From the NCBI RefSeq assembly GCF_048403405.1, contig NZ_CP183129.1: a stretch of 64,000 bases of DNA; one strand, given 5' to 3'. A program made the translations under genes and the position numbers. This DNA comes from Escherichia coli (GTDB lineage: Bacteria; Pseudomonadota; Gammaproteobacteria; Enterobacterales; Enterobacteriaceae). Below the pieces are notes generated by a model. The model worked only from the letters and a program-made list of their open reading frames with translations, searched no databases and had not been told where the DNA came from. Position 1 is the first letter of the stretch. Every line of letters starts with the position of its first letter. Of this stretch, positions 62,432 to 63,920 are shown piece after piece.

Positions 62432-63920
62432 AACGCCCCAATTTTCTGTTCATCATGACCGATACCCAGGCCACCAATATGGTCGGTTGCTATAGCGGTA
62501 AACCGCTGAATACGCAAAATATTGATAGTCTGGCGGCGGAAAGTATTCGCTTTAATTCCGCCTACACCTGTTCACCGGTTTGTACACCAGCGCGCGCCGG
62601 GCTGTTTACCGGTATCTACGCTAACCAGTCCGGCCCGTGGACCAATAACGTCGCGCCGGGCAAAAACATCTCCACTATGGGACGCTACTTTAAGGATGCG
62701 GGCTATCACACCTGTTACATTGGCAAATGGCATCTCGACGGTCATGACTATTTCGGCACTGGCGAGTGTCCGCCGGAGTGGGACGCTGATTACTGGTTCG
62801 ATGGGGCGAACTATCTTAGCGAACTGACGGAAAAAGAGATTAGCCTGTGGCGCAATGGCCTAAACAGCGTCGAAGATTTACAGGCGAACCATATTGACGA
62901 AACCTTCACCTGGGCGCACCGCATCAGCAATCGGGCGGTAGATTTTCTGCAACAGCCCGCGCGCGCCGAGGAACCCTTCCTGATGGTGGTTTCGTATGAT
63001 GAGCCGCATCACCCGTTCACCTGTCCGGTGGAGTATTTAGAGAAATACGCTGATTTTTACTACGAACTTGGCGAGAAATCACAGGATGACCTGGCGAACA
63101 AACCGGAACATCACCGCTTATGGGCGCAGGCGATGCCATCGCCAGTCGGTGATGACGGGCTTTATCACCATCCGCTCTATTTTGCCTGCAATGACTTTGT
63201 TGATGACCAAATCGGACGGGTCATCAATGCCTTAACGCCAGAGCAACGTGAAAATACGTGGGTTATTTATACCTCCGATCACGGCGAAATGATGGGCGCA
63301 CATAAGCTGATCAGTAAAGGAGCGACGATGTATGACGACATCACCCGTATTCCGCTGATCATCCGTTCGCCGCAAGGGGAGCGGTGACAGGTCGATACGC
63401 CAGTCAGTCATATCGATTTACTGCCGACAATGATGGCGCTGGCAGATATTGAAAAACCAGAGATTCTGCCGGGGAAAATATCCTTGCCGTGACAGAGCCA
63501 CGCGGCGTGATGGTGGAATTTAACCGCTACGAGATTGAGCATGACAGCTTTGGCGGTTTTATTCCGGTGCGTTGCTGGGTGACGGATGACTTTAAACTGG
63601 TACTCAACCTCTTCACCAGTGATGAACTTTACGATCGCCGTAATGACCCAAATGAAATGCATAACCTGATCGATGATATCCGTTTTGCCGACGTTCGCCG
63701 CAAAATGCATGACGCCTTATTGGATTACATGGACAAAATTCGCGATCCGTTCCGCAGTTATCAATGGAGCCTGCGTCCGTGGCGTAAAGATGCACGACCT
63801 CGCTGGATGGGGGCGTTTCGTCCACGCCCACAAGATGGCTATTCGCCAGTGGTACGCGACTATGACACCGGCCTACCGACACAAGGGGTGAAGGTGGAAG
63901 AGAAAAAACAGAAGTTCTGA
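62428..63920 (+). pseudogene. yidJ: Sulfatase-family protein YidJ, apparently inactivated (in-frame TGA plus 1-bp frameshift)
   Basis: Sulfatase N-terminus (CSPVCTPARAG formylglycine motif region) in ORF 62428..63387; an in-frame TGA at 63385-63387 is followed by sensible sulfatase sequence in the same frame, then the frame shifts at a G-run (63471-63474) into ORF 63489..63920. Confidence 0.7.

Follow-up and report, generated by a model that had tools for sequence, protein, structure and literature searches.

The window, as we call the whole stretch of 64,000 nucleotides of Escherichia coli DNA that was analyzed (contig NZ_CP183129.1), carries the gene pair yidKJ, all of it on the plus strand. 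The upstream member, yidK, encodes a solute:sodium symporter (60716..62431; ORF list, with the annotation of the identical MS 69-1 region and of K-12), and its stop overlaps the start of yidJ by 4 bp, while yidL is divergent. No uninterrupted 497-codon yidJ ORF is present in the window; the gene is split into ORFs of 319 and 143 aa. The 5' fragment of 319 codons (62428..63387; ORF list and translation) ends at a premature TGA at 63385..63387, which by alignment goes back to a C>T change at 63385 in an ancestral CGA codon (R320*). The initial annotation had located this in-frame stop correctly and had counted 28 further in-frame codons behind it; translation of the continuation (63388..63470), which alignment shows to be the same as in the intact gene, gives QVDTPVSHIDLLPTMMALADIEKPEILPG, or 29 codons. 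A run of four G residues at 63471..63474, with AAAA immediately after it and an ancestral length of five (alignment and junction scan), then shifts the frame by one base. Beyond this run the original yidJ frame reads KISLP and closes at a TGA at 63490-63492, and the remainder of the gene (63475..63920; codons about 350-497), which is identical to MS 69-1 and holds the SGSH_C/DUF4976 subdomain identified by Pfam, lies in the -1 frame. The ORF list gives this part as a C-terminal ORF of 143 aa (63489..63920). Both the one-base shift and this ORF had been described in the initial annotation, and the G5 run of the relatives bears the description out.

The domain content of the two fragments was compared with that of the intact protein using Pfam. 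In an intact relative, the Sulfatase domain (PF00884) covers residues 4-341 (E = 2.2e-71) and the SGSH_C subdomain (PF16347) residues 299-434. The N-terminal fragment of the window matches PF00884 over residues 4-318 (E = 1e-63), with the profile stopping at position 277 of 301, and the SGSH_C subdomain, removed from this fragment by the TGA, is matched by the 143-aa fragment. The active-site motif C52-T-P-A-R56, which fits the pattern (C/S)-x-P-x-R, lies within the N-terminal fragment by translation, and we regard the yidJ product as a putative Cys-type sulfatase with predicted formylglycine conversion at the C52 motif. R320* alone would delete the last 178 residues and abolish the enzyme. 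YidJ is named only as a “putative sulfatase/phosphatase” (PMC7716201), and our literature search for a known YidJ function returned nothing useful. The K-12 gene (b3678, NP_418134.1, “putative sulfatase/phosphatase YidJ”) shares with that of the window the locus of yidL and yidK-yidJ, both domains, and the CTPAR motif, at 97.3% DNA identity, and the protein of the MS 69-1 clone (WP_000828517.1) has the same locus and domains and is encoded by a gene identical to that of the window apart from the two lesions. Compared to both, the gene in the window differs in being interrupted by R320* and the G5>G4 deletion. Next to yidJ, the spacer to yidH in the MS 69-1 clone is only 60 bp (window 63921-63980) and without yidI; in K-12 and strain 488, yidI lies between the two genes on the opposite strand (3416-3865 of the strain 488 region, L003).

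We compared yidJ across 5,426 complete E. coli genomes, and found a match in 5,131 of them and no match in 295 (about 5%). The genomes TUM14771, GN02461, 4621, MS 69-1, TUM1226, and OX030728 are 99.9% identical to the gene of the window, followed by KE55 at 99.8%, and in all seven of these the yidJ span is 1494 bp, compared to 1493 bp in the window. In the six closest complete genomes, yidJ is without exception listed with a normal product, and the annotations that we fetched for MS 69-1, TUM14771, and GN02461 give it as an unflagged CDS of 497 aa with the same protein accession, WP_000828517.1. Aligned to MS 69-1 and TUM14771, the gene in the window differs solely by CGA>TGA (R320*) and G5>G4. 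The K-12 gene is a single ORF of 1494 bp and 497 codons, as the initial annotation had stated, with zero indels relative to MS 69-1. The alignment to K-12 that it had proposed as a check, together with that to MS 69-1, was informative on both points, returning a G run of five and an ancestral CGA (Arg320), not the TGG that it had suggested. Relative to MS 69-1, TUM14771, GN02461, and K-12, yidJ in the window thus carries two disabling lesions, a nonsense codon and a frameshift. None of the 5,426 complete genomes carries the TGA, as judged by exact match of a short query, and an exact 35-mer spanning it had no match in species-representative genomes. Exact-product look-ups found the 319-aa product absent from a collection of 15 billion proteins and returned no record of the 143-aa fragment. 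By these comparisons, both lesions are derived and private to the window, and the disruption is neither an old decaying pseudogene nor a recoding site.

To place these two changes in context, we aligned the entire window to the MS 69-1 chromosome (NZ_CP146675.1), which differs from it at six positions over all 64,000 bases. Three of these are substitutions, all of them G:C>A:T: G>A at 5258 (lpfC S237N), C>T at 36928 (dnaA P111S), and C>T at 63385 (yidJ R320*). The other three are 1-bp deletions: G6>G5 at 6974 in lpfC, T4>T3 at 43297 in the yidB-yidA spacer, and G5>G4 at 63471 in yidJ. TUM14771 and GN02461 match MS 69-1 at each of the six, and wherever either of them departs from MS 69-1, the window has the MS 69-1 state; the window therefore equals MS 69-1 plus six private derived changes, and MS 69-1 itself has none. 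MS 69-1, otherwise identical to the window but possibly another strain, carries a sense codon and a five-G run in yidJ, which is the state that the initial annotation had named as refuting its reading. GN02461 differs from MS 69-1 at three sites, the same number as the substitutions in the window, and because this distance is equal, three substitutions in 64 kb could be real strain differences. The R320* site and the G-run deletion lie 86 bp apart, and among six random sites in 64 kb we computed that some pair would fall within 86 bp about 4% of the time. The two yidJ lesions are thus closer together than usual, though only mildly so, and as the finding was singled out post hoc, their closeness is not compelling.

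The changes outside of yidJ, all mapped by alignment on the plus strand, provide further context. The gene for the long polar fimbria usher, lpfC-O113 (window 4549-7044), bears two of the private changes, S237N at 5258 and a deletion at 6974..6978 that shortens G6 to G5 directly before AAAA (junction scan), swapping the last 30 residues of the usher and yielding a protein of 831 aa instead of 840. This deletion is of the same junction class as that of yidJ and is probably an artefact. By exact-product look-up, neither the frameshifted lpfC combined with S237N nor S237N alone was on record. The DnaA P111S protein is known from other E. coli lineages that are about 98.7% DNA-identical to the window, and this comparison marks the change as homoplasic and tolerated; codon 111 is in what we take to be the flexible domain II linker. 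Product look-ups gave no record in the MS 69-1 clone of any of the three private substitutions. We also considered methylation-linked substitution error and rejected it, as all three sites are outside Dcm (CCWGG) and Dam (GATC) motifs and have no motif in common, so that no systematic substitution error is suggested. The remaining deletion, in the yidB-yidA intergenic region, changes C5T4 to C5T3 at 43292..43299 (junction scan).

Several other features of the window were noted in passing. Genes for a glv-like PTS IIB component and a 6-phospho-alpha-glucosidase are intact in the clone (window about 56720-59660; MS 69-1 20125-23063); K-12 annotates glvG as a pseudogene, and the homologous ORF of strain 488 is given as “frameshifted”. 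In the espY4 region (window 18307), TUM14771 has a run of A7 where the window and MS 69-1 have A8, and the espY4 gene of TUM14771 (L011 11649-14056) is annotated as “frameshifted; internal stop”. A gene of the ShET2/EspL2 effector family lies near tnaC.

The sequence context of the three deletions is highly specific. The ancestral 64 kb contains 24 G/C runs of at least 5 and about 280 A/T runs of at least 5, the latter reaching A9 and T8, but a G/C run of at least 5 abuts an A/T run of at least 4 at only four sites, namely 6974 (G6A4), 43293 (C5T4), 61553 (A4G5), and 63473 (G5A4). The three deletions occupy three of these four junctions, and no other homopolymer in the window is altered. Even if deletions are limited to G/C runs of at least 5, the chance of this junction pattern is about 0.002. 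The fourth junction, within yidK at 61553-61561 (AAAAGGGGG), is the sole intact one. Runs of A7-A9 and T7-T8 keep their full length, as does the C6 at 52509, and yet a T4 beside C5 was shortened. The rate of replication slippage rises with run length, and slippage would for this reason not be expected to spare A9, T8, and C6 and yet shorten T4 beside C5. The yidJ deletion is a 1-bp homopolymer change, and its class is both over-represented in the assembly, with three of the six differences, and specific to one context.

The same deletion alleles recur elsewhere. Within the MS 69-1 clone, exact-product look-up found the yidJ G4 allele, together with the ancestral CGA, in three read-run assemblies (SRR16525823, SRR26139062, and SRR15989089), on contigs of only 2.5-3.4 kb (L014, L016, and L017); the intact YidJ protein is encoded on 282 contigs of up to 5.29 Mb. 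Two of the three G4 contigs carry additional homopolymer deletions (CC>C and T5>T4 in L014, A6>A4 in L017). The same two have A at position 64322 and the third has G, which represent two subclades, and the G4 allele is therefore homoplasic within the clone. The G5 allele of lpfC, without S237N, was found on three contigs, of which the two shown (L018 and L019) derive from SRR21142058 and SRR27201581, and L016, L018, and L019 have no deviation besides their respective deletion. Among the 5,426 complete genomes, short queries requiring an exact 28-mer over the run found yidJ G4 in two genomes (strain 488 and A1.S1.126), lpfC G5 in four (B1.H1.18, B1.H1.1, O17_K12a, and OZ259269), and the T3 allele of the yidB-yidA spacer in 14, which are clustered by submission batch. 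Carriers from the Olsztyn CP1465xx batch occur at each of the three deletion sites and carriers from the CP1831xx batch at two of them, and the T3 allele is common to five CP127xxx and three CM1426xx genomes. A given batch can thus be met again at an unlinked site in another strain. A literature search on the sequencing platform of the Olsztyn batch returned nothing useful. As for sequences that would support the lesions as genuine, the TGA has no occurrence in the 5,426 genomes, and all occurrences of G4 are on short or noisy contigs or in genomes of unrelated lineages.

The two complete genomes with the yidJ G4 allele, strain 488 (NZ_CP183111.1) and A1.S1.126 (NZ_CP146588.1), belong to unrelated lineages whose yidJ is 96.7-97.3% identical to that of MS 69-1. 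Both are annotated in RefSeq as having a “frameshifted” yidJ pseudogene in which the run concerned has likewise gone from G5 to G4, and both are without the TGA. A1.S1.126 has a second lesion in the gene, an additional C at gene position 333, while in strain 488 no new frameshift besides that in yidJ was found within 40 kb. An intergenic C4T4 allele in A1.S1.126 was considered as a further junction deletion and rejected, as 575 genomes of a large lineage naturally have it. In B1.H1.18, a member of the Olsztyn batch, the essential gene rnpA is annotated as frameshifted through C4T6>C4T5 at a junction of a C run and a T run (L025 15466-15824), which points to residual homopolymer errors in the RefSeq “complete” genomes of this batch. 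We take the batch clustering and the frameshifted rnpA as evidence that assemblies of this kind are subject to a class of junction-deletion errors, whose rate there of about 2 per 48 kb resembles that of the window (3 per 64 kb), and we infer that the deletions in the window arose in the same way. The aadA1 resistance gene is also annotated as frameshifted in B1.H1.39 (L024 3325-4160), from the same wastewater/clinical batch.

We believe that these results are best accommodated if the yidK-yidJ locus of the window is simply the ordinary one of the MS 69-1 clone, with yidJ intact but for two private changes. The G5>G4 change would then be one of three 1-bp deletions found across the assembly, each where a G/C run adjoins an A/T run, and deletions at such junctions would point to systematic error in homopolymer calling or consensus, presumably from a long-read or flow-type platform. 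Judging from sequence comparison, the yidJ frameshift is quite probably an assembly artefact. The initial annotation had called the gene a recent pseudogene or the product of a homopolymer sequencing error; this framing holds up, as both lesions are derived states that are private to the window, and as the gene is unbroken over its 497 codons in K-12 and the nearest relatives, and for the G-run lesion the junction specificity, the batch clustering, and the frameshifted rnpA favor the second of its two options. Two observations weigh against an artefact. The A8, A9, and T8 runs are intact, although a generic long-homopolymer error would target them, and the clean L016, L018, and L019 contigs and strain 488 would also fit a real slippage hot spot. 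The nonsense codon is a separate matter, as a substitution is atypical of homopolymer-platform error. A real nonsense mutation is conceivable here, since no spontaneous substitution is commoner than G:C>A:T, and R320* may be a real, very recent allele private to the strain; it may also be a consensus error in the same weak stretch, near the probable error in the G run. Taken as a whole, this explanation (an MS 69-1-clone locus and an artefactual frameshift, with R320* of either origin) seems likely to us, and we put the odds that the source strain really has an inactivated yidJ at about even.

Other explanations divide the evidence differently. It is possible, although we would say so only tentatively, that both lesions are errors and that the window is a lower-quality independent assembly of MS 69-1 or of a near-identical isolate, in which the true sequence has CGA and G5. 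At all sites that vary in the clone, the window has the MS 69-1 state, with six private differences on its side and none on that of MS 69-1, and the 86-bp spacing would fit one weak stretch of consensus; the lack of records for any of the three private substitutions in the clone agrees with this as well. An older draft assembly of MS 69-1 exists. MS 69-1 is a Human Microbiome Project strain that BEI distributes (PMC10958030). Substitution errors are, however, uncommon in consensus sequence, and three substitutions in 64 kb are within the normal spread of the clone, given that GN02461 and MS 69-1 also differ by three. We consider it unlikely that both lesions are real and that yidJ is a very recent pseudogene in which the G run slipped first and a neutral C>T stop followed. 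The G4 allele also occurs without the TGA, in the three read-run assemblies of the clone, and the G-run deletion would for that reason come first; yidJ looks dispensable in view of the 295 complete genomes without a match, two unrelated RefSeq genomes annotate the same frameshift, one of them with a second lesion in the gene, and the nonsense mutation is of the commonest spontaneous type. Set against this are the context specificity of the deletions in the window, the batch effect of the alleles and their co-occurrence with a frameshifted essential gene, and the distribution of G4 within the clone, where it is carried on short or noisy contigs from two subclades and by no well-assembled member.

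Biological explanations for all six changes, or for the yidJ lesions as functional elements, appear weaker still. The six changes could all be real if the strain were a hypermutator or had undergone stress mutagenesis, through a defect in mismatch repair or ung or through Pol IV-type -1 slippage, with yidJ as a local cluster, and a spectrum made up solely of G:C>A:T transitions and -1 run deletions fits this, as does the asymmetry of six changes on one branch and none on the other. Loss of mismatch repair mainly produces A:T>G:C changes, however, of which there is none among the six, the longer runs (A7-A9, T7-T8, and the C6 at 52509) are untouched where T4 beside C5 is shortened, and the same alleles appear in unrelated assemblies of particular batches, so that we consider this scenario very improbable. 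A related proposal is that junctions of G and A runs such as GGGGGAAAA are real slippage hot spots that reversibly switch off lpfC and yidJ in independent lineages, with the strain of the window being a hypermutable or stress-mutagenised sublineage of MS 69-1 that has a local mutation cluster in yidJ; to this we also give little credence. It is difficult to credit at all that the TGA is read as selenocysteine or by readthrough and that a programmed -1 frameshift on the G run then yields full-length YidJ. Termination at UGA is weak in E. coli when the next base is C, as it is at R320*, and a -1 P-site slip on CCG GGG would give back the exact wild-type peptide. Such a mechanism would require two events in series, and the stop is unconserved, with no complete genome carrying the TGA and with CGA and a single ORF in MS 69-1, TUM14771, GN02461, and K-12. 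The RNA 3' of the UGA is no better folded than shuffled sequence (z = -0.42), and lacking a conserved stop and a stimulatory fold, recoding was rejected.

Returning to the artefactual frameshift that we prefer, the consequences for biology are small, as yidJ is an uncharacterized gene that is absent by match from about 5% of complete genomes and intact in every close relative, and its disruption here is of an ordinary kind either way, whether private and very recent or spurious. The practical value of the finding is that of a quality flag. Junction 1-bp deletions occur at roughly 1 per 20 kb in the assembly of the window, and other apparent frameshifts in it, such as that in lpfC, therefore need read support before they are given a biological reading. 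Some RefSeq “complete” genomes are contaminated by the three deletion alleles as well, in the form of annotated pseudogenes. Spurious pseudogenes that result from homopolymer indel errors in long-read or flow-based assemblies are a known class of artefact. The window departs from this class in that its longest A/T runs are unaffected and in that the class does not explain the accompanying substitution. It shares with the class the single-base homopolymer deletions, their recurrence at the same sites in independent assemblies, and their clustering by batch, and in the rnpA of B1.H1.18 an essential gene is broken, just as in the known homopolymer artefacts.
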